A DNA stretch of 64,000 nucleotides, from assembly GCA_036172245.1 (NCBI GenBank), contig JAYWIR010000020.1, positions 930,001-994,000 of the forward strand, read 5' to 3'. This document shows positions 11,700 to 52,450 of the stretch, one piece after another. Source of the stretch: Raillietiella orientalis. Its lineage: Eukaryota. The first letter of the stretch is position 1. Each line of letters starts with the position of its first letter. The position numbers were made by a program, and so were the translations under genes. The notes below the pieces were generated by a model. It was not told the DNA's origin and did no database searches. It was given only the letters and a program-made list of their open reading frames with translations.

Positions 11700-14300
11700 T
11701 CATTTTGCAGTGCTCCAATTTCCAAGGTAGTTTCACAAACCTCTTCAGAAGGTCTTTTCACGCATGATGAGGCCCGCAGCTCGTTGTCAGGAGGCTACAG
11801 CGCCCTGGCAGCACGCTGTGTTCGAGCCTTGCGCGCGTTTTCCTTCCTCAACTTTCCTGATGGAGTGAAAAGCCAAATTTTCCACAAAATAAATAGATAA
11901 ATGGATAAAAAGGCAGAGACGGTGGAATAATGAGCAGTTCACAGTCCTTTCGCCGATGAGCCGGAGACTCTGATACCTGAAAGGATGCTCGACCTTGTGA
12001 CCGAAGGAGGCAACGTACCTCGACTTGCAATGGAGAAGGCAGGAAGATGCGGAATGAAAACTTACAAGAGAGCTCTAAACTACGGGAGGGGCAACTGGTT
12101 GGCCACTCTCGAGACTGGATTCAAGGTGCAGATGCGAGAGCGTTCCAAGGCACTATACAGGTCAATCGGGATGACCCCAGACGGCTCGAACAAAACGTAC
12201 GAACATACCAAAACAAATGAGAATCTTTCTGAATCCTCTCGACGGCAACTGCTCGTGTAGAGAGCAGGCTGCTGGCTTTTTTCCCCAAAAAACATGAAAG
12301 AGGGAAAAGGAGGCAGCGGCATGGTGGCCGGTTGGATAGTTTGGGTATGATGTCGAAGTTTCGCTCAGTGAAAGAGCACTCTTCGATCGGAGAAGACCTT
12401 TGTACTGGAGTGGCTCGCTCCACAGGTTCTCCGAGACTAGGAGGACATGGCTGGGCCTCTCCTCTCGCATCCTGAAACTTCCGTGTGGAGTCGTGGTTGG
12501 ATGGTGACCTTTGAAGTGGACGAGTGCGTCTGGAAGTACTTCCAAGAAGGAAACTGTCAGTTTCTCGTCTAGCTGGTGAAAGTTCATTGCTAGTAATACT
12601 CAAAAGGTCGGATGAGAGGACAAAAAAAAAATCCACATTCTAAGGGAAGATGATGAGCTGTTCCTGGTCAGGAGGAAGCCCGTGGAAACGCTGGCGGTGA
12701 CCCTCAGCGACGCCAACGTGCAAATAGATCTCAAGAGCTGGGTGTGAAGCGGACGAATCGAACCGCCCGGTGGCTGGTTTTCTCCGGGGTTCCCCCCAGG
12801 GCAGCTGGTACTCACCAAAGCAGAAGCAGAACCGAGTCTCATTCGGTAAAGCGAATCATCAGAAGTCTCGAGGTCAAAGTGACCTCGACAAATTCTCAGA
12901 CTTCTATGGGCGAGAAGTCTGACTTTCTTGAATGCGGAAGCTAGGAGTGTCGGATCTATAAGGTCAGTTTTGGTGACTCCAACTGTGTCCCAAGATTCAT
13001 AACGGCGACGCTCATCGGATCCGGTGGAAGCGTTGGTTAGCTGCAAGGAACAGCAGGGTGGTAGCCACGGTGGCTGTAATTCGCTCAGATGTGTGTAATG
13101 ACACCCGCTGGAGCAACCGACTCTAAAAATGGAAGGTACTCCAGCATCGAGCCAGCACCTCCGGTACAAAGCCATTCCTGTCCTCATGACCTCGATCATC
13201 GTCGGACGTGATGTTCCTCATGTTCCCACGAGTATCAGGATCGCGATGATTGTGAGCAAAGGGATCCAGGAGCGAGCTCGCTTGGAGTCTGCTTTGGAGC
13301 AGATCTCGATAGTAGTGGGAGATATTCCATCGAGATCCTGGGGGTACGACGTGAAGGTCTCCGCGTTAACAGCCTTCGAGCATGGTCCCCGGAGGAGCTG
13401 AAATGAAGAAAAGAGCGATCCCTAAACAAACAAAAACACACGAAAAGAGAACCTCTGGGATGAGTTAATTGCCAGGAGCCATTCCGATCACTGCTGTTTT
13501 CCGTCCTTACAACGAAGCGAGCTCTCCAGCCGCTCGCTTCGCCGATTCCTAAAGCTCGTGACCCGATCGGGGAGAGTCGATGCCACCGTCGAGAGCAGCG
13601 ATGCGTTCCTTCTGAGTAAAAAGGACAGAAACGGGAATTGTTCTGGGTGCACTGACCTCAGAATCTTCCCCTGCTATCCGAAACTTTGCCATAAACACTA
13701 TGCATCGCGCTTCAACACGATCGACCGAGATGTCATGATGAGGAGCAAGTGAATTCGTCAAATCTTTAATCCATCTGCGGTGGTAGGGAGGGTCACGTAT
13801 ACCTCCATCTATTAATAGCCTGATGCAGTGATCTGCCTACCTAGGAGTGACCTGGTTAATATGGATATATATCTGCTCATTGAGAAGAAGAATTCGAGGC
13901 GGTCCAATGAGCTGTAATAACACCATTTCTGCTTTTGGAGTTGTCGATTTGGTGGTTCCCAGTTTGCTAGGAAGTCTGAAGACAGTTCCGGGACGAGGAA
14001 AATGGATGACTTTCCATTTCCGATCTTTGAAGAAGGGTTGGTACATAAATGGTGCTCCCCTCTCTCGATCCAAATATTCTAGAACTGGAACCCGTTGCTG
14101 AAACATCCAAGGTTTTCTCGGTGGATGCCACCACGCTCGCGCCACCGTGCCTGTCTCATTTGTGCAAGACTTTTGTTTTCCACTTGATGAGGATCCGGAT
14201 GCAGTTTGGACTCTGTAAAATCTCTAACCAGAATATGTTTTCCTGGTCTGTTCTAATCAGTTTACTGTTCGTCGTTTGTCATCGTGGCTCACGGACACTT
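11700..14300 (-). mobile_element. Decayed DIRS-like element, RT-RNaseH-MT-YR order
   Basis: Minus strand, in order: SSIFLVP (~14000) and YIHI (~13865) for RT; LTNASTG (~13030, cf. TDAS..G) and NPGENQ (~12790, cf. HIPG..N) for RNase H; QRAAGLIMREKTF (~11770, cf. YR C-terminal AAGW...TF). Many stops and frameshifts. Confidence 0.5.
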
Positions 14301-19399: not shown

Positions 19400-20420
19400 T
19401 TTTCCGCTCATGTGGAATTTATTAGTTTAGAGGGGAAGCTGCATCCTCTCATCATGGCTTCTGCTGATTGAGACGAATCCCGTTCCGCCTCTGGTGCTTC
19501 TCTGTGCCCGTCACTCGCTCTCGGCCGGAAGCTCCAGTTCGGTCGGTCATCTTTCGCAAGGACCGTCCACGTCGCCACCGGGCCCGGAAGCACCTGGCAG
19601 AGGCGTTCGCGACAGGGAAACAAGTCTCCCTCCGACGCCATCCGTATCTGAGGTGTTTTCTCAACTGCTTCATGGTGCCATCACCCCCGAAACATCATCT
19701 GCACTGACGGGAGCGCTGCAAAATCGCCTTTCTCGACGACGTCCTCTGAAACCGGCCGCGTGCATGCATCCGTGCAACCATCTCTTCGGGTGCTGCCTGA
19801 GGTTAGTTCTCAGGAACACCCACCCAATCTTCTTTCCCGACCACCGCGAGTCTCCGCTGGTGACCAAGGCTCGGAAAGAGGAAAGTGCCGTTGTGCGTCG
19901 TGTTCGTGAGAATGGAGGAAAGGGATGGCCTCTCCCGAGATGAGAAGGACCACGTGAACCGCGACCACCTTCTGCCACGGTACAGCGCGAAGCCAAAGGG
20001 GCGTCCGGGACAATTGTTCGGGGTGAATGCGGGCTCTGCTGGCCTCCCCGGAGACGATCTCTGCTCCGCAGGCACGGTTCGCGCTGACTGGATGGCCCGC
20101 AAGGTGCGTCCGGTACGTGTCCCGGCCGCGCTGTGTGTTGGGACACACCGATCCAGGCGTTCTGCACGAGTGCGAGGTTGTCTGAGCACCTGGTGGTTCC
20201 TCGGGTCGCGCACTGCCAGGGGTCGCACCTCGACGGATGCTCGCATCGACTCCTCTGCTGGAGAAAGGAGCAGCCGTTCGCAGTCCTTGCTCTCCGTTCT
20301 TCTCCCTTCTGCTTCTCCTTCCAGCATTGTCTCCGAGTTCTCACAAGGGTGGGAGGCGTCGATCATGATGAATCGACTCTTTGTTCTGGACCATCCTGCA
20401 GATAGTGGCGTAACCACTAG
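19400..20420 (-). mobile_element. L1/Tx1-like LINE ORF2 C-terminal fragment
   Basis: GC-rich block. Minus strand VTPLSAGW (cf. P...GG.G), SRTPLWL and GDLFPCRERL (zf-RVT-like start). Resembles the minus-strand fragments at 49.6-51.2 kb. Confidence 0.4.
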
Positions 20421-22320: not shown

Positions 22321-22588
22321 CGATGACGATTTTCAATGAGAATATTGGAAATTCCAAGTACAGAACATCCTCACCGACAATCCAATGAGGATTCTAATCG
22401 GGCAAAATTGGATTCTTCACTTTTATTCAGATTGTCGACTGCGCTACAGAATTCTAAAGTAGGGAAACACTTTTCCCCTACCTCCATTGAAAGAAAAAAA
22501 AAAACCTCTGAGAATGAACTTGTCGTTTTTTTTCCCACAAATTTTTTGTTTGAGGTTCGTTTTGTAGAATTCAAATCGCGTTTGGGAA

Positions 22589-23372
22589 GCCCGCGCCGGA
22601 GGCCGTGTGGTTACGGTGGTCTCCGCGCATGGCACCATGCGCCGTGGGTTCGAATGCTCCGAAGGAATCGACGCAGTGCGTCGTGGGTTCCGAGTTCACC
22701 CCACAAGATGACGCTGGTTGGTCTGCATTTATTCGGGTGCGGCACTGCTAGCGGTTAAAACCGGATGTCCTCCCCCAATGAGGGCCGGGACAAATGGGAG
22801 TCGACCTCCGGGTCCTTCCAGGAATCACGGAGTGGGAGCTCCCCTCCGGTTGTGAAGGAGCGGATCCCCATTCTGGGGGGACCTTCCGCATCGTACTGAT
22901 GGAGTAGGTGTGTCGCCACCACCGCTCCAGAGAGTGCAGAGAAGCGAGCCGATCCCTGCGGGAAGCTGCGTCCTTCTGAATTTCGGAAGAGTCCCTCTTG
23001 GGTTCACTTCCGAGGAGCAAAAACAGGAGCGGATCCTTGCGGGGGATCCCTCCGGAGAAAAAATTCCAGGATCGGATCCTTTCGGGTTCCCTTCAGAGAA
23101 GAAAGAATGGAGCGAACCTCCCGGGGGTCCTCCGGAGAGAATAAGGAAGGAGGATTCCCTTCTGGATTTCCCTTCGGAGACAACCAGGGTGGAGGTGTTT
23201 TCCATTTCCGGGGATCCCTCACCAGGCGTGAGAGGAATGAACTCCGAGTTCTTCCTGGATTCAAAGGGCGGACCCTTCTCAGGGTTACCCCCTATCTTAA
23301 AGAATTACCCGCCCTCGGATGGAGTGGAACCGTGTCGAAGAACTGCGAAGACAGAAAAGAAGGATTTCCATC
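22589..23372 (+). mobile_element. tRNA-headed SINE-like element, copy 2 (best-preserved head)
   Basis: A-box-like GGCCGTGTGGTTACGGTG at 22601 (cf. tRNA-Ser/Leu GGCCGAGTGGTTAAGGCG). B-box-like GGTTCGAAT 22647, GGTTCCGAGT 22686 and GGTTAAAACC 22753. Hairpin array ~22950-23260. Ends AAGAAGGATTTCCATC as in copy 1. Confidence 0.8.
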
Positions 23373-23894
23373 ATCCAAGGTTTGGTAAAGCTCTGTATGT
23401 TCAATTTAGGAAGAACGCACATGTTCCGTTACTGTGCTCTCTTGAAAGGGATCCCTTATCTGGAGAAAGTCTGAAGAGCGAGTTGAAAAAAAGAGATGCT
23501 GTGAAGGTTGTTTGAGCACCACAGCAATAGTGAATCCGGGGACTCGATGTGAAGGCAATGTAGGCTGGTGGGGAGATTCCAGAGTGTGGCATAGCATCGA
23601 CGGATGTTTCTGCGATCCTGATTCACACGACGAAGATTCGAATACTTTCGTGAATACCTTGCACACGCATGACGCTCGAGATGGAGAGGCGAGGACAATA
23701 TATATCTGGAACGCACTTTTTCTCTTCTCGGCAAAATCGTACTCTAGATATGCTCGCAGATGAAAACTGCGTGACCTCAGTTGCATAGTTCCTTAGCTAT
23801 ACTTCAGACAAAAGCACGCATGTAGCGTTTTGTTTTGAAATCACGCGCTTCTAGATAGTAGATATGTTCGTTGTGTCCTCCATTACCTCCATCA

Positions 23895-27740: not shown

Positions 27741-28559
27741 GCCAGCCGGAATTCCAGTCGTCCCCTGGGGGGAAGAGAGGGAGAAATACAAGGGCAGCAA
27801 CGGTCTTCCAACGAATATCTAGGGCTGCCAGGTTTCCAATGAGGCTTGCTACAGATTCACCCATGTAGACGTGCCACTCGAATTTTGCTCTGGCACCACG
27901 ACTCGGCGTCGGAATGTGAGGAAATTTTTTTACGCGGAGCTCAGACGGGTCCAGGGTAAAGACCACTTTCGCCTTTTGTTAATCAAAATGTAAGCATATG
28001 ACCCTTAGCAGGCATGCCTGAAGCCATGGTGTGTGCTTCAGTGGAAGAGACGGTTTTGCTGGAAACGTCTAGCCCTAAGGGAAAATCTGATGAGATGAAA
28101 AAAAAATTTGCGCGCGTTTGGAAAATTTCACCTGGTCATTGGAAGTGCGAAAGAATTGAAGCAACAAATTTTCTGCCTTTTTCCGATGACTTTTCGAGGA
28201 TTTGCCGCAATTCTGATCATTTCGGATTTATCATTGTGCACTTTCAGAGCAAATCTCGTCAGAACCTCCAGTTATTGAGGATAGATGATCTTCCAAGTGA
28301 AGCTTGTTTCCATAAGAATAAAAGAATCGATTATTCATTAATAAGCTTTGCATAATGAATCTTGGTGAGCAATCTCGGTGAAATTGGATCGGTGATACTT
28401 TGTACTCAGGACCCTTCAGGACGAATGGAAGAAGCAGCTTCAGGATTTGAAACAGCCATTTTGATTATAAGTCGGAATAAAAGTACAGAACTTAATCTTT
28501 TATATATGGCCACTAGCGACATCATGGGAAGATCGTTATTATCGTCCCAGGATGATTCT

Positions 28560-29078
28560 CAAACGGTTATGCCCGGCTACCACTCACAATGAAGAGAGGT
28601 GCGCAGGCCGACGAGGTCCACTTCGGCAGAGTAGGGGAAAGGAAAAAACAAACAAACAAGGCAGGGTAGGGGAAATTTTGCACAGGGAGAGGGGGTGGAG
28701 GAGATCGAGAAAGGGATCATGGTACTCTTCCCGGAGTCCTCTGCATACTGTTCAGGATGCTGGCAAGTTCCGTTCGTGTCTCGTCCAAGTGGGGACATCT
28801 CGAGGCTGTCCTCAGACAGATCCGCGCCCAGTGGATGGCGTCCTTGCCATTTCGGCCTCTTCCTCTGGCGTTTCAGGACGCCGCCATCCCGTAAACACAG
28901 CAGAGAGCTGCTAGGGATGCGGCCGACGGCAGAGCGGCATGGGCGAAGAGGCATTTGAAAATGCCCACGGGGCCTCCCACCAGGGTCTCTAGGATCGCTG
29001 CGAGACGATCCCAGAGGGGTCGGAGGGCAGCACAGTCCAACAGCAGGTGCGGGAGGGTCTCCCTCTTCCCGCACCTAT
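28560..29078 (-). mobile_element. L1/Tx1-like LINE 3' end (zf-RVT region + 3' UTR)
   Basis: 29021-29076 is close to 50834-50890 (ggagggcagcacagtc...gcaggtgcggga...cccgcacct). Minus strand has TGATCCCTTTC and the 3' UTR motif ctgccgaagtggacctcgtc. Confidence 0.6.
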
Positions 29079-29114
29079 AGCACTTCGTCCTAGAATAATG
29101 AAAATCCCTTTAGA

Positions 29115-29584
29115 TTCTTCTTTTTCGCTGCTTTCCTTTCAGCTTTGTTTTTTTTTTTTTTCCGGGTTTTGTTTTGGTTCGCTCAGTACCCAAAGAACCG
29201 TTCGCCTCCTTGGGAGAGGCTCACAAAGCTCTTTACCATTGTCCACGTTACCCGAGGGTAGGCATTACTCTTCAAGATAGGGAACACCTGGAAAGGGACC
29301 ACCCTATGAATCCAGGAAGGCTCCGGAGGAAGGAGTCCTTTCCTCTCTTACGCTTGGTTGTGAACCCTGAAAGGGGAACCACTTTCTTGTTCTCTCCAGG
29401 AGGAACCCCTGGAAAGGATCTGCTCCTGGTTACCTCCTTTGAAGAGAGCCCTGAAAGGACGCTTCTCAATTTCTCAGAAGAGCTCGAAACCCATGGCGCA
29501 CCCCGCATTCCGAGGGTCTCTCCTTTCCCGGGCGGGATCCCAGCCCGCGACGCTCGTTGTCGCGTTGCCGCCGACGTGTGCACT
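29115..29584 (-). mobile_element. tRNA-headed SINE-like element, copy 3 (internally deleted)
   Basis: Head remnant cccgcgacgctcgttgtcgcgttgccgcc matches copy 4 (45691-45719). Hairpin array 29285-29480 with cctgaaagg loops. Tail ggttcgctcagtac..aagaacc next to a T run on the plus strand. Confidence 0.75.
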
Positions 29585-43299: not shown

Positions 43300-46200
43300 T
43301 CAGGGAGTCCTTGGAAAGAGTTCACTCACTGCCTCCTGCGGGAGTTTTGCTTTGCCCGGAAGAAGAAACTTCCTCCTCTCTGGGAGGAGGACGACGCTCT
43401 CCCCGACGTGAGTGGCGGCCGCTTGCGGATCCTCTCTGCCTGTTCCGCTTTTCGCTTTCGCCGTCTCACTCCCCTCCCCTTCTCCCTATCAGCGCCCTTC
43501 CAGTCATCGTGGCTCAGGTTCTTCGCCCCTTCAGCAGGGGAATGCCCTTCGAGAGGCTGCTCCCTAGCCAGTGGGAGGGGAAGGCGCCCCATGCTGCGGC
43601 AGAAGCCGCGCCGCCACCAGCCAGGAGACAGCCCCGATGGGAATGGTGGAGCGCCCGGTGAGGACTGGCAGGGAATGGCGTTCTCTCCAGGACGACAGAG
43701 CAAGGGTGGGAAGGAACACGAAAGCGCCTTCTCGTCGCCATCGATTCTCGCTCAGCAGGAGGAGGACTCCTTCCCCCTGTGGGTCTGCAATTGCCCGTAG
43801 GTCCCGGTCGTTGCGCTGCGGTAAGCTGAGGCGCGTCTGAATTTTACGCCTCCCGACCGACAGGAGCGTCCAGCGGAGGCAGGGAGGGGCAAGCGGGCCG
43901 AGCCCTCTGAAAGGATCTTCGGAGTCTCCGGTGGAAGCTCTACCTCCGGTGTCCACCTCTGGAGAGAGATGTGGAGGTGCGGATTCCTTCCCTCGAGAAA
44001 GGTCACCGACTGCGCTGCAGGGGCTGCGAACTAGATGAGGAGGACCCTCCAGGCCTCCTCGTTGCCAGGGAAACTGGGACGGGATCCTCGAAGGCGGAAG
44101 GAATCTTCCGAAATTCTCGATGGACTCCTGGGGATCCCAGGCTTTTCCCACTGGACTCCTTGACGCTTTCGCTGCTCTGCCAGATGCAAGTTGCCTTCTT
44201 GCTGGTTCTCCGTAGATCCCCCTCGAGTGCCAACGATTACAGGGCTGCACCGTGAGAGCTCCTGGAGGGGGCGTCCCAGAAAAGGGCGTCCTGCCCTCTC
44301 GAAGATGTCCCCCTGCACTCGCAAAGCAAGCTGCTAACCTCTTGGCCCCCACCGGTCACCTCCTCCTCGTCCGCTACGTACGAACAGCAGCGGGGGAAGG
44401 GAGGAGAAGGAAGATGGGGATGCAGGAACAGCTCCCTTCGAAGCACTGGGGGCTCCTTCGCCACCTCCGTCGCTCTTGAGTGGGAGCTGGTGCGGTGAAG
44501 TACCTCCGACCGATGGACTACTCAAAAGGGATGGTCAGGTAAATCGTGGGAAAGCTTGAGACCCCAGTGGTAACAGCATCCCTTCCTTTCCCCCCTCCCC
44601 ATTCCCGATGCACGGGAGGCGCTTTCCCCGCGTGTCCTGTCATGCTCTCGGGAGGCGCTTCTGCGACGGCGCGACGTGCTCCGGACGTTTTCAGAGGACG
44701 GCTAGGATCGTCTTACTGGGCGGCAGCAGGCTCTTCCTGATGAAGCAGGCTGCCGCGCCAGAACTGATGCTCCTCCAGTCCGGGACACCGCACTTTGGCA
44801 ACGGAAAGCAGGACGCCCTGATGGCTCGGCGCCGGAAGCAGCGCTGAGCGCCAGATCCTCGAAAGGGGGTCTCCTCTCGCCCTAGGCGGGGAAGCAGACC
44901 TATTTCTATTGACCTAGTTCGATAGAAACTCTTTCGGGTTCCTCTGCGTTTGCTGCCGTCTCTGCAGCTCTTTTCTTTCTTTCTATTTTTCGGCTCGCTG
45001 AGTGCTGAAGAACCTCCCACCTCCCTGAGAGTTCCCTCAGAGGGGACTCACCAAGCACTTCAATGCTGTTCTCAAGTCACCCGACGGTGCGTGTGAGGGA
45101 TCGAGGAGTGCTTCGAGTAGAGGGTGACCCCAGGTGAATCCAGGAAGGCTCTGGAGGAAGGAGTCCGTTCCTCTCATGCTTGGTAGAGAACCCCGAAGAG
45201 ATCATCCTCTTCCTTTTTCTCTCTGGAGGGACGCCGGAAGGGATCCGTTCGGGAATTTCTTCTCCGGAGTGCACCCGGAAAGGAACGGCTCCCGTTTTCC
45301 TCCTCTGAAGGGAACCCCGAAGGGGCTCTTCCGAATTTTCTCTGCAGGGCGCTCCCCGGAGGGAGTGCGCTTCTTGGCACTCTGGAGAGGTGCTGAACCA
45401 CCAGCTCCATGCTTCGAGATGGGGAGATCTCCCCATTTGGGGAAGCAGGCGGCTCCGTTTCACAATTGGAGGGGAGTCCCGAGGGACTCCTTGATTCCTG
45501 GAAGAACTCCGGAGAGGAAGCCAACTTCCAATTCCGGCACTCATGGAGGGGGCATCCGGTTCCTGGATTCCTCCAGTGCTGCCACACCCAAAGCCCATGG
45601 ATGAATCCGCGTCATGCTGCGGCGGAGAACTGGAAACTCACGACGCACCTTTCGTTCTCAGCTTCGCTCTTTCTCCAGGTGGGATTCGAACCCGCGACGC
45701 TCGTCGCCGCGTTGCCGCCAACGCGGGAGGCAGCGGGAGTTCGGGCGGCACTCGGGCCCGTGCACGACGTGAACAGACACTGAGCGGCTCGTCTCGGTAG
45801 AGTCTCCCTTGGGGACGCGATCTCCGGCCCGAGGAAGTGGGTGCGCCATCCTGGCTGTGGCGCCGGGCGTCTCTCTGGGAAGGGTATGGCGGGAATTTCC
45901 CGAGCCTACCGGAAGGAGCTGCCCGGCTGCTCGGTGTGAGGAGGGCCTCTGCTCGGTCAAACTGACCCGCTGCGGGAAAGGAGGTGGTGGGGGTTCTTCC
46001 TGCGCGCAGTAGAAGGAGGATCCCCCTCTCTTCCAGACGCGTCCCCAGAATGAGCTCTCTCGGCCCTCGCGGCAGCTGCCGTCATCTTGCGCCGCCGCAT
46101 CTGCGTCAGCAAGGCGCTCAAGGAGCCACGTTTGTAGTGAAGAGTGAAGCCGCCATATGCCTCCTTCGCCTGCCCGTTTCCGTGCTTCATAGATCTGGAA

Positions 46201-47949: not shown

Positions 47950-49100
47950 GGTCCCTCCAACGGGAGTCCGGCGGAGGTTTAGGTCGGGAGTTCGCAGTCC
48001 TCGGTGGTGCTAAGAGTTCCGCCACCTGGGACTGCCGTAAGCGCCCGAAATTCAAGCCACAGAATTCCGCAGACGGGTACCTGTCCAGCGGATTCTCCGG
48101 ATCTCGTTTAGCCCAACCCCTGAGAGGAATTTGCATCTGCGCCGTCTATCACGAAAGACTCCCTGCGAAGTCCTCTCGTTCATGCCATCGTACCTTCCCG
48201 TATCGCCGAAGAAGGAACGGCTCGTTGCAGCAGGAAGCAATAAACGAGCTAAAAATACCAGGGAGCATATGGAGCCCCGCGCGAACGGGAACCTTCACAT
48301 CCACGTGGGAGCATCCCCATCCAGGGGTCCAATCAGCGTGGGCGAGTGTGCACTCGAATCTCCACTGCAGGAACAACAAAAATCATTCGATGCGTCAGCG
48401 CCGGAATCTCGCGGGATCTCCTGACTGGCAGAAAAGCCCGATTTATCCCTGCGAGCTTCCAGCATCACTGAAGCTAGCCGGATCCTGCAACCGCTCTCTC
48501 CTCCCGCACTACGAGTGGGTACGAAATGAGTGGGCTTCCTTCCCACAGTGGCCAAGACCTTACCCTGGCACCAAAGCAGTGACCGCATCCGCGCACCACT
48601 CACTCCCTACCACTGCTGTGCTCTGCTCCCCCGAGAATCTCCGGAAAATCCTGCATCCTCCGGGTTCTGCAATCCCCTTTGCGAGCTTACCCGAGTATAT
48701 AGCAGAAACACTAACGGCGATGGGCAATGGCAAGTGCCTTGGAGAGGGAGGGAGCTGGACCGAAAAAACACTTCATTCCCCATTCCAGCTGCAGAGCATG
48801 CAGCTCTGGTCCCGGGATCGAGAGGCTTTGCTTCCCGTCCTTCCTCTCTTGCAAGGAAAGCGACCAGTGGAAACGACAAATTCGTCTACTTTCATGCCTT
48901 TCCCGGAGAAAACAGCGCCTTTTTCCAACGAGGAAAAGCGATCGAATGAAAAGAGTCCCCACCGAGGAGAGCACACGTCACTCCAGCAGTAATCAAACTT
49001 CTTCCGAGCCAAAACAAGAAGAAAAAGAAGCCAGTTTCGAGGTCCGGTAGTCGTAGATTCGCTTCGACACCTCGCAGCTGGGAGGGGAGAGGGGGAGGAA
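47950..49100 (-). mobile_element. Tyrosine recombinase remnant (DIRS/Ngaro/Crypton-like)
   Basis: Minus strand PRNWLLFLLVL (~49030) and SFR-like agtctttcgt (~48155), then FLSGVGLNEIRRIRW (~48085-48130, cf. A...G+...I...GRW). Confidence 0.35.
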
Positions 49101-49169
49101 GCTTCCGGGAACGCGACGACGTTGCTGGTCGTACACTTGCTCACGCCGAAGGCCAAACATCGCTTGATC

Positions 49170-50330
49170 ATCAGCCGGGTGTGCCGGGGTGTTTATTTCA
49201 TTGAAAATGAAGAATCACAATCTCTGTGGTTGGACTGGCGGTCCAGCCACGTGCAATTTAGCGGGAGCCTGCCGAGTTACCAGTACGCAGACAAACGAGT
49301 TCCTCCGCGGCAACGGAGGGGAGGGGCAACAAAAAGAAAAAGAAACAAAAAATAAAAATCAAATAAATAAATTTGGTAGGGTGCGGGAAAGGATCAGGGT
49401 CACCTGGGGGCGTTCCTTTGCACCATTTGGAGGATGCCGGAAAGCTCTTGCCGCATGCTGTTGTTCTTCAGGTGGGGCCATCTTGTTTTCATCTCATGAA
49501 TCGGACGGCAAAGTGGATGGCATCCCTCTCGCTCGGTCCCCGACTTGCGTCGCTCTAGGCAGTAACGATCTCTCTTAGGCAGCAGAGTTCTGCTAGCAAG
49601 GCTGCCGGCCGAAGAACGCCGTGTACCCAGAGGAATCTTACAGTGTCTTGGAGTTGCTGCTGGGGGTTCGTGGGGCCGCGGCAAAGCGTTCCCAGAGGGA
49701 GGGCAACACAGGTGCCTCAAACGGGTGCGGGAGGGATTCACGCTTCCCGAACCTGGCACACTTCGGTTTTACACCGCCTCGTGTCCAGTGATGCTGGCGG
49801 GGGTTGCACGGGAGGTCCCAGTGCAACAGCATCGACGCCACCTCCTGCCACTTTAAAGAGAGGGTGTGGGTTGCAACGTCGTCTGGTGGAGCGCTCTTCT
49901 TAGCTCCCAGTGGACGTCGGCGGCGGGTCGCGCGGTTCTGCGTTCCGTTCTTTCCGATCACCACACCACAGGTACCGCATTCCCCGGGGCAGTCGGCGGT
50001 AAGCGCCTTCCGGTCATCTGGCGACCGGGGAAGGAGAAACGCAACGGCGACGCTGATGTCGAAGAGGGTTCGTGCGAGTCGCTATTCTCCGAGGTCAGAG
50101 AATGGAGACTTGGTGCTCAGTAGGGAAGCTCACTCAACCCCTGTCCACACCGTCGTCTGCGTGTCGTGTGCGTCGTCTGTGTCTGTCGCTTTCGGTGCCC
50201 GAGGGGACTTCCGGATGTGATGTCGAGTCCGGCACGACCGGTGCAATCGGCTTCCGGGCAGGAGGGAGAGCTCAGTTGCGCGAAACTGCCTTGCTTAGCC
50301 ATTTTTCTGCGGCATCCGAGGAATTGGTTC
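49170..50330 (-). mobile_element. 5'-truncated L1/Tx1-like LINE (zf-RVT + 3' UTR)
   Basis: LLHWDLPCNPR...KCARFGKRESLPHPF..LPSLWERF (zf-RVT). 3' end AATAAACACCCCGGCACACCCGG on the minus strand. Homologous to 50700-51000. Confidence 0.7.
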
Positions 50331-52450
50331 AACACCCGGTAACGCCGGGGCGTTTATTATAAAAATACACATGTTGGCCCTACATCGTCCGAAAATGTTC
50401 GCAACCTGCCGAGTAACCGGCAGGCAGACCGGCGAGTGGCGAGGTTCGCCTCGGCAGCAAAAGGGGAAGGAGGAAACAAAAAGAAAAATCAATAAGAATC
50501 AATAATAAAAAAAAAGACTCTAGGGGGCAGGGGAAGGGATCACCGGGTGCTGTAGGGCGTCCTCTCCATCCTTTCCATGATGCCGGTAAGTTCCATCTGA
50601 GCATGGCCATCTAGCTGCTGTCCGCAGGAAGCGCAGGGCGAAGCAGACGGCGTCCCTAGGGCGCCGTCTTCCTCTCGCGTAGTTCCAGGCCGCCACAATC
50701 CCATGTAGGCAGCAAAGAGCTGCTAGGTATGCTCCAGGAGAAAGGATATCACGCACGAAGAGGCGCTTTATCACGTCTCTGGGATTGTCCGTCGGTGCAC
50801 CAAGGGCCGTTGCGTAACACAACCACAGGGGCCGGAGGGCAGCACAGTCTACACAAGCAGGTGCGGGACGGATTCCCGTTCCCCGCACCTGCAACCGTTG
50901 TGGTCCACAGCCCCCGAGTCCAGTGAGACCAGCGCGCGTTGCACGGGAGATCCCAGTGCAACAGCAGAAGTGCCGACTCCTGACAGTTCAGGGGGGGACC
51001 TGGTTGTTCTTCTGCCATGAAAGTCACTCAAGGTCTTCCTGTGGTATTTTCAGGAGCTCACTCCAGCGCCATAGTCCTTTCGATGGACACTTGGGGTCGT
51101 AGCGTCCGTGATCTGGCCCGTGGTCCAACCAACCATCGAATTCCTTCGTTCTTACACCGATCTCTCATTGGACCTCCCATTTGACCGGCTGGTTACTGCT
51201 CAAGTGCTCCCTGAGGGAGGGCAGTGCCGCGTCTAGGGAGGTTCTTTGAGCCCGCGCACACGTGGTGGACTGCGCGCTGACGTTCTGCAGCGAGCGGTTG
51301 CAGGAGTGCGGCAGTCGGTGCTGCATCTCTGAGCTTCGTTGTTGTTGGCCCATGAGCGAACGGTTTCCTGCAACCGGGCGCTACCGTTCGCGGGCAGGCA
51401 TAAGATCCAGTTGTTGGTCCTGGTCAGCTTGGCCACTCGCTGGAGCTCCAGTCCGCATCTGGACACGTTGCTCCTGTGCCGCCGTGGCAGGAACAAATAC
51501 AGTTCCGAGTAGCCAGCGGCTCTCTTGACCAGTTATCATGTGGGCTGGAACCAATTCGTTCTCCAAAGCTTCATCACTATGGCGAGTGTCCTCCACCGGA
51601 GTTTCAGCTCCAGCCACTCCATCGTCAGCAGGGCGGAGCCTCCGTTGCGACGCGGAGTGCACAAGTCCTTTAGGCGGACTCAGGACCTCCTTGTGCTCCA
51701 CAGAGCGATTTTCAGGAGGTACTTCTCTTCGGGGGGCAAACAAAAAGCAGGAGGAAGAAGAGGAGGAACACAAACGCGTTCCACTCCGCGGCCCGTTCCG
51801 GCAAGAGAAACTTGCCATCCCAGATCGGGCTGATCGCCGACTCTGCCTTCTGGACGAACCTGGACCACGCCTCTGTCGGAAATTAGTCCCTTAACAATAC
51901 ACTGAGGTACTTAAAGTGCAGAACCATGGGATCTCCAAGAGGATCCAGTCTTGCTGCCTTGCCCAAGCCGAACCGACTGCTACCATGGACGATTTCGCCT
52001 CCATGCCTGTCCCACGACTGAGCAGCTCGAGAAATCTTACAAGTGCCAATGCCTAGTGGGACATGGGGACCAGCAGCAGAAGACCGTCTGCATACGCTGA
52101 CACGGCAGGTGTGCCTGGGCACGCGCGTCTCAGGAGAGCCAAAGTCTCCCTGTACTTCCTCAGCACCGACTCGAAGTAGGTGTTGATGAGAAAGGGCTCA
52201 GGCTGTTCCCCTGCCGTATCCCGCGGCGCACCAGCATATCGTAAACGTTTTCTTCTCTGAAAGAAATGTGTAGCGCGTCGCGCCAGCAGGAGTGCAGAAA
52301 GGCCGTTAGAGAGACCGGAAAGCCCATGCATTCCAAATGCTCCAGAAGAAGCTCCTGGTCGGCGCAGTCGAATGCTTTTCGCAAGTCGACTGCGACCGCA
52401 AGGGCTCCCACTCCCAAGGAACTGGTGCTCTCTTGGATTGGCTCACGCTG
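50330..52450 (-). mobile_element. 5'-truncated L1/Tx1-like LINE, RT core to 3' UTR
   Basis: VDLRKAFD, RGIRQGNSLSP, SAYADG (YADD), FKYLSVLL, KIALWSTRRS, ILCLPANG, LLHWDLPCNAR, CRCGERESVPHLL, then 3' UTR ending ATAATAAACGCCCCGGCGTTACCGGG. Confidence 0.9.

Follow-up and report, generated by a model that had tools for sequence, protein, structure and literature searches.

What kind of element is the repeat that occurs four times in a 64,000-nucleotide stretch of the Raillietiella orientalis genome (assembly GCA_036172245.1, contig JAYWIR010000020.1, positions 930,001 to 994,000 of the forward strand; hereafter, the window), and how has it spread? Comparison of the window with itself by BLAST bears out the four alignable copies (copies 1 to 4) that a first-pass annotation had reported from the bare sequence (69–81% identity over 84–654 bp, best E-value 9e-71), and a four-way alignment could also be made. 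The repeat is an abundant, non-coding, retroposed family resembling short interspersed elements (SINEs), with a head similar to transfer RNA (tRNA) and a repetitive hairpin body; its newness is judged from literature searches. Its copies end in distinct ways, and we lean towards reading the family as a long tRNA-related SINE with two main insertion routes, in which self-priming by the RNA is the main source of the copies that stop at the foot of a terminal hairpin.

As proposed in the first-pass annotation, copy 2 was used as a BLAST query against the R. orientalis assembly (210 Mb). This gave 3,536 first-look candidates on many contigs and allowed a consensus to be built and the ends and target-site duplications (TSDs) to be defined. 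The best 40 of the 3,536 candidates, which were scored, are near full length and, the query's own locus excepted, 85–95% identical to the query. A 17-nt motif of the tail has 288 exact matches genome-wide. Sixteen 10-kb stretches, taken at round positions on large contigs, contained eight matches, which suggests, by rough extrapolation, a total of about ten thousand fragments in the genome. There are at least three subfamilies, 70–78% alike and each with its own number of body units: B (∼740 nt), A (∼790 nt) and C (∼1,065 nt). The consensus of A (788 nt) was built from 30 loci; B is headed by copy 1 and has ∼30 copies at 81–92%; C, the longest, was drawn from tail loci (14 copies). The best relatives of copy 4 reach 68–78%, one identical duplicate aside.

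All three subfamilies begin sharply at GCCCGCG, and both ends of the consensus are sharp. The sequence does not run on into a coding element, an outcome that the first-pass annotation had named as fatal to its proposal, and none of the six open reading frames overlapping the repeat matches Pfam. By the SINEBase definition (PMC3531059; this and all other papers are cited from excerpts of their text), the repeat is a long SINE family and no new class. It is non-autonomous and non-coding; the at least 100 copies of that definition are exceeded both by the exact tails and by the first-look candidates; A and B (the latter measured to its usual end, 740 nt) are shorter than the 1 kb limit, and C is slightly over it. 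The first-pass proposal of an abundant, undescribed element therefore stands in part. The copies number in the thousands, and literature searches, which covered listings and the openings of abstracts, with subscription papers outside their coverage, found no published description of this family or of a self-priming SINE; the kind of element, a long SINE family, is a known one.

The terminal hairpin and target-site duplications

Loci chosen by the 17-nt tail motif reveal the full 3' end: a 46-nt hairpin, then a T run, then poly(A). Thus, the A-rich stretch, previously taken for the end of the element, is not its end in full copies, and the most informative part of the family, its terminal hairpin together with the different kinds of insertion end, escaped the first-pass annotation. 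Most copies selected by BLAST end at CATCATCC or CATCGT. Among the first-listed 30 tail loci (29 distinct places), 13 carry the whole hairpin, four end inside it, and 12 stop 0–4 nt from CATCRTCC; full tails that are identical count once after removal of duplicates by their first 30 nt, so that full copies are under-counted here and among the 115 distinct tails considered below. Genome-wide, an unmutated hairpin start (TAGRCC) directly follows 73 of the 288 exact tails, an under-count of hairpin-bearing copies, as mutated ones fail the pattern. On contig C1 it is kept in 14 of 29 exact tails, compared with 59 of 259 on the other contigs.

The predicted fold consists of a small tail stem with the terminal stem right after it, and the last bases of the RNA are paired beside the stop site. 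The folding z-scores of four tails are −4.0, −1.9, −1.6, and −3.5, and that of the decayed copy 3 is −1.1. TTTT is absent from consensus A, B, and C before the end, where only about one occurrence would be expected by chance.

TSDs were called at a score of at least 8, with mismatched pairs as the control. They flank seven of nine full copies and start with A (control 14%; in one case the duplication is no more than an A run). Six of another 12 hairpin loci have a recognizable head, and two of the four with a whole hairpin score at least 8. Copies stopping at the hairpin foot have TSDs in 3/42 cases (control 1.2%), a class that includes the misassigned rows L026, L027, L156, and L169. Young internally truncated copies have them in 8/13 cases, often overlapping the end of the element; this set was taken from 23 of 24 rows, with ten dropped (four reaching the tail, four old with unresolved ends, two secondary fragments), and has no shuffled control. 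Because the TSD rates differ, the foot-stopped class is unlike both the full and the internally truncated classes.

Some loci show other arrangements of the same parts. In L278, a full copy is directly followed by the head of another copy, forming a head-to-tail dimer, and L230 is a retrocopy of the terminal hairpin and poly(A) alone. At L129, L132, L135, L150, L170, and L156/L157, two copies, often of different subfamilies, form tail-to-tail pairs that meet at the tail motif.

Inverted remnants and the origin of foot-stopped copies

Five of the 115 distinct tails reach the stop and then, within one base, continue into the reverse complement of the 3' arm of the hairpin, where 0.06 would be expected (background 0.0005 per site). 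These inverted remnants measure 10 nt (L161), 13 nt (L284), 22 nt (L205), and ∼30 nt (L239, with its head beyond the sequence examined), and in L157 the whole hairpin is present. Two of the five come from 49 loci that were fetched after the hypothesis and selected only as having no exact TAGRCC; in this later set, remnants of at least 5 nt occur in 3/40 copies (control 0.7%, p 0.003). The remnant of L205 has the loop of subfamily A itself, and an 8-bp repeat flanks copy and remnant as one; in L284, a 7-bp repeat with one mismatch likewise flanks both. The outer junctions of L205 and L284 are the element head and a cut inside the hairpin, with no RNA 3' end at either, and therefore these insertions were not started by target priming. 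The remnant junctions are most simply explained by a complementary DNA (cDNA) that was covalently attached to the RNA 3' end, with later copying across the junction; they are what would be expected if the RNA folded back at its 3' end and primed its own cDNA. That self-priming produced the remnant-bearing copies seems to us highly probable. Twin priming (PMC4476161) was rejected for L205 and L284, as it requires the RNA 3' end or the priming point at a flank. In-place inversion of the hairpin loop would retain TA and poly(A); the remnants start with AA and have no poly(A), and this explanation was also rejected.

Self-priming has precedents: 3' stem-loops prime their own cDNA, U3 pseudogenes having been attributed to it (PMC4027162), and self-priming of SINE RNA has long been proposed, with citations for Alu and BC1 (PMC3820591). 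From the end classes and junctions, which are directly visible in the genome, we infer a Pol III (RNA polymerase III) origin, the priming event, and the integration route as follows. The SINE RNA, presumably a Pol III transcript ending at the T run, would bear the hairpin at its 3' terminus, its last bases pairing beside CATCATCC. By the first route, of which the full copies carry the signature, the RNA would gain poly(A) and undergo ordinary target-primed reverse transcription, yielding full copies that carry poly(A) and TSDs starting with A. By the second, the free 3' end of the hairpin would prime reverse transcription on its own or on a second RNA; the cDNA would begin at the hairpin foot and then be linked to the chromosome, in most cases with no TSD. 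The RNA primer would usually be lost and sometimes be partly copied, leaving an inverted scrap of the hairpin. Copies made in this way are probably poor source genes, because the hairpin and the T run are missing. Internal target priming may be a minor third route, giving copies that are cut further upstream and have TSDs. The enzyme is probably one of the non-LTR (non-long terminal repeat) reverse transcriptases of the genome. As to mobilization by a partner long interspersed element (LINE), full copies have poly(A) and TSDs, and none of 50 reverse transcriptase (RT) loci, a sample of 3,358 candidates dominated by few families, shares the tail.

The usual explanation of SINE insertion is target priming. 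A bolder version of our proposal is that this family spreads mostly without it: the 3' hairpin would prime free cDNA that integrates head-first or by end joining, hairpin and terminator would be missing from most offspring, source genes would be renewed by the poly(A) route only, and the same tail would be a homing site for LINEs. We put this forward tentatively, giving it somewhat less than an even chance.

Several results count against self-priming as the origin of most foot-stopped copies, besides the misassigned rows in that class. Clear remnants are rare (5/115), although they support the existence of the route. In the later-fetched set, short remnants are not significant (at least 3 nt in 7/40, p 0.05; at least 4 nt in 3/40, p 0.09). 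No loci with two identical hairpin arms were found; the arms of L156/L157 are 66% alike, and therefore priming in that case would have been in trans. The terminal hairpin has no covariation beyond column shuffles (score 0.123 compared with 0.122; three double-sided changes compared with 2.1) in a test on 50 rows, many of them chosen by the hairpin pattern, from copies that decay neutrally. Finally, LINE insertion at this position of the tail implies the action of a nuclease, which could shape the ends.

Target priming could also produce foot-stopped copies if a second enzyme of the stringent type bound the tail and started internally, after the small tail hairpin; TSDs would then be short or absent, and the remnants would be rare template jumps onto the RNA 3' end. 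Many LINE ends in the fetched loci do stop a few bases past AATAAA and a small GC hairpin, without poly(A), like the SINE tail. A second RT lineage also exists in the genome (L185–L190), partly tandem near a contig end and unlike the main L1/Tx1-like family; it may be a LINE of the restriction-endonuclease type (NeSL/R4-like), and it is a candidate enzyme for the copies without TSDs. There are precedents for insertion without duplication (PMC4494074) and for a Penelope-like RT that initiates internally (PMC11167929). However, no LINE with the SINE tail is present in the 50 RT loci, the hairpin-ended LINE in copy 3 did produce a duplication, and internally primed copies mostly have TSDs, both here and in mammals (70–100%, PMC4476161). 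Remnants in register with the hairpin foot are not predicted either. We consider internal initiation rather unlikely, though it is the main competitor to self-priming.

The nuclease at the tail suggests another possibility, namely that all copies were inserted full-length and lost the hairpin later, at the DNA level, through a tail-targeting LINE nuclease, the remnants and tail-to-tail pairs arising from a nicked genomic tail used as a primer. The tail is indeed a LINE target. In copy 3, which is a full copy, a LINE has landed in the tail and divides the element in two, with a 13-bp duplication (29099–29087 and 28556–28544, 10/13 identical); L122 has the same arrangement, its insert matching the C-terminus of an endonuclease–RT reading frame (E-value 1e-4); and in 6/20 hairpin loci (five distinct), the same LINE end lies directly before the last bases of the tail and the hairpin. 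The tail includes the palindrome CCTAGG, and five tail-to-tail pairs have no hairpin (L129, L132, L135, L150, L170). Still, the flanks of foot-stopped copies contain no leftover poly(A) or distal hairpin, there is no hairpin past the far heads of L129, L132, and L135 and no poly(A) past the head of L205, and none of the 49 later-fetched loci was flagged as a tail-to-tail pair. All this makes later loss improbable.

We had also considered the LINE ends before the hairpin as the tail of the partner, and dropped this reading: in copy 3 and L122, where the upstream side was examined, SINE sequence lies upstream and the tail bases are duplicated. Antisense LINE ends lie near SINE position 140–160 in L072, L100, L123, and L084. 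In L140, L156, L158, and L193, LINE ends are followed by SINE-body sequence near position 600–720, possibly a third landing site. The assignment of these LINEs to an L1/Tx1-like clade is presumptive, being taken from Pfam domains and known features of the clade, not from a tree.

Head, body, and other features of the window

The features of the window are listed in the table. The extents given for copies 2, 3, and 4 in the first-pass annotation had to be corrected, to 22589–23376, to ∼29087 and then 28556–28497, and to ∼45728 to ∼44905, respectively. The linker was described correctly, including its absence from copy 3.

Table. Repeat copies, their parts, and the inserted LINE (window coordinates)
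Feature	Position	Strand	Remarks
Copy 1 (subfamily B)	1425–2173	−	Stops before terminal hairpin, no TSD; 94% identical to consensus B
Copy 2 (subfamily A)	22589–23376	+	Complete head; stops at terminal-hairpin foot; no poly(A); 94% identical to consensus A
tRNA-Ser-like head	22589–22660	+	A-box-like motif 22600–22610; first B-box-like motif 22648–22657
Duplicated T-arm-like segment	22676–22700	+	Second B-box-like motif 22687–22695; read from sequence and alignments
Conserved linker	22815–22832	+	Found in copies 1, 2, and 4
Body	22857–23300	+	Some ten degenerate units of ∼41 nt, made up of a GC hairpin and a purine-rich spacer; Tandem Repeats Finder (TRF), folds, A/B/C alignment
A-rich stretch and small tail hairpin (23361–23376)	23340–23376	+	Last bases CATCATCC; 5-bp stem directly before terminal hairpin in full-tail folds
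AAGG, possible 4-nt inverted remnant of RNA 3' end	23377–23380	+	Weak, could be chance
Possible degenerate TSD of copy 2	23380–23391, partner 22580–22590	+	Score 6.5, under threshold 8; judged by eye
Copy 3, 3' part	28497–28556	−	Decayed terminal hairpin (28549–28508) and A-rich end; 79% over 48 nt to end of consensus C, E-value 3e-8
5'-truncated L1/Tx1-like LINE in tail of copy 3	28557–29086	−	In sense; CxxC...HLLxxC translation; tblastx to LINE loci, best E-value 8e-26
Copy 3, 5' part	29087–29581	−	Old, without linker region
Copy 4	44905–45728	−	Old, ∼72% to A and B; ends inside first arm of terminal hairpin

The relation of the head to tRNA appears borderline to weak on sequence comparison. 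Over 64 columns, which take in 58 nt of the element, the head of consensus A matches tRNA-Ser(GCT) of the same genome in 41 by manual count, with a score of 34 compared with a maximum of 27 in 200 shuffles; for the head of consensus B, no tRNA scores above its shuffle maximum. The comparison covered A and B against nine Ser/Leu loci chosen by a head-like pattern, and SINEBase asks for at least 60% over at least 60 nt. ARAGORN found no tRNAs in the whole window. The head motifs are named after what we take to be the A-box and B-box consensus. The multiple B boxes reported earlier come down to two B-box-like motifs, and their source is a duplicated T-arm.

TRF gives a period of 41 in the body of copy 1, and unit number varies between subfamilies in the A/B/C alignment. 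Tandem duplication of a single palindromic unit is the most likely origin of the array. In local folding, the body exceeds dinucleotide shuffles in copy 2 (z −3.5), consensus A (−4.4), and consensus C (−2.8), and is no better than shuffles in consensus B (−0.9), copy 1 (−1.1), and copy 4 (−1.6); for copy 2 as a whole, z is −1.8. Strong folding is expected of any duplicated palindrome and is no sign of selection. The idea that the copies descend as pseudogenes from a functional cellular RNA, the hairpin array of which is a multivalent protein scaffold, could draw on the folding of A and C and on a head stem whose pairing is, by eye, kept across A, B, and C, but it is very improbable given several subfamilies only 70–78% alike with differing unit numbers, best copies scattered at 85–95% with no conserved source locus seen, a subfamily B that folds like shuffles, the absence of a match in Rfam, and the good folding of tandem palindromes without selection.

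The Rfam search suggested in the first-pass annotation gave no significant match for copy 2 (best E-value 0.41) or for five full loci. At permissive thresholds, these same sequences matched no Rfam ribozyme, and a ribozyme retroelement (hepatitis delta virus (HDV)-like or hammerhead) was rejected; by eye, the tail is also without the helices that, as we take the topology to be, follow P1 of the ribozyme. Helitrons and Helentrons, which have a fixed CTRR-type 3' end with neither TSD nor poly(A), were rejected as well: here the ends differ between copies, some of which have poly(A) and TSDs.

In addition, the window contains two old LINE 3' pieces (49264–49871 and 50403–51244, sense on the minus strand) with AATAAA and a small GC hairpin but no poly(A), and another LINE end of this kind at ∼30542 on the plus strand. 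The frame at 49403–49768 had no significant BLASTP match to ORF2 (open reading frame 2) of locus L060. A decayed fragment of large-subunit ribosomal RNA (rRNA) lies at 12501–13381 on the plus strand (Rfam RF02543, 137 bits), and 14 small-subunit fragments are scattered in the genome, which suggests frequent retrocopying of cellular RNAs. The small-subunit rRNA of the host appears to be of arthropod type. Near-identical duplicates on the same contig were found for 19546–20391 (98.7%), 48791–51450 (99.2%), 44930–45760 (100%), and 61112–61215/63709–63812 (97%); these nearby duplicates are either recent segmental duplications or retained haplotypes.

Comparison with known systems

If only the SINE reading holds, this is an ordinary, though long, new repeat family. 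What the family offers beyond that is genomic junctions recording the primer, and two insertion signatures of one RNA that can be compared. Like the tRNA-related SINEs of SINEBase (PMC3531059), it is interspersed and non-coding, with over 100 copies, a head–body–tail layout, a tRNA-like head, and a body of degenerate repeats, for which CHRS is cited there. It differs from them in its length (∼1,065 nt in C), the borderline tRNA match, and the terminal hairpin, which lies past the A-rich stretch and is absent from many copies.

The closest parallels to the proposed second route are the self-primed U3 pseudogenes (Bernstein, Mount, Weiner 1983) and the self-priming of BC1 (Shen, Brosius, Deininger 1997), compared here through the papers that cite them (PMC4027162, PMC1687206, PMC3820591). 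In these cases, reverse transcription starts from the 3' end of the RNA itself and yields 3'-truncated copies, as would be the case here. What sets the present family apart is that it is a high-copy SINE, that its terminal hairpin is a dedicated one, and that the genome keeps inverted primer remnants.

Tailless retropseudogenes and 3'-truncated small nuclear RNA (snRNA) pseudogenes (PMC5322556, PMC4476161) have a complete 5' end, preferred 3' cut sites, and no poly(A), and our internally truncated copies fit this description. TSDs flank the former (8–35 nt at the 3' truncation, required by the screen, PMC5322556) and 70–100% of the latter (PMC4476161); the internally truncated copies share this feature, whereas the foot-stopped ones mostly do not.

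Lastly, LINEs of the Tx1 clade target other repeats, with Tx1L found in Tx1D and Tx1-Mar in Mariner-N4_AMi (PMC4494074). Similarly, LINE pieces recur here at set positions within a single repeat, one position having them in sense and another in antisense orientation. Unlike in those systems, the target is a SINE, and one of the sites is the SINE's own tail.
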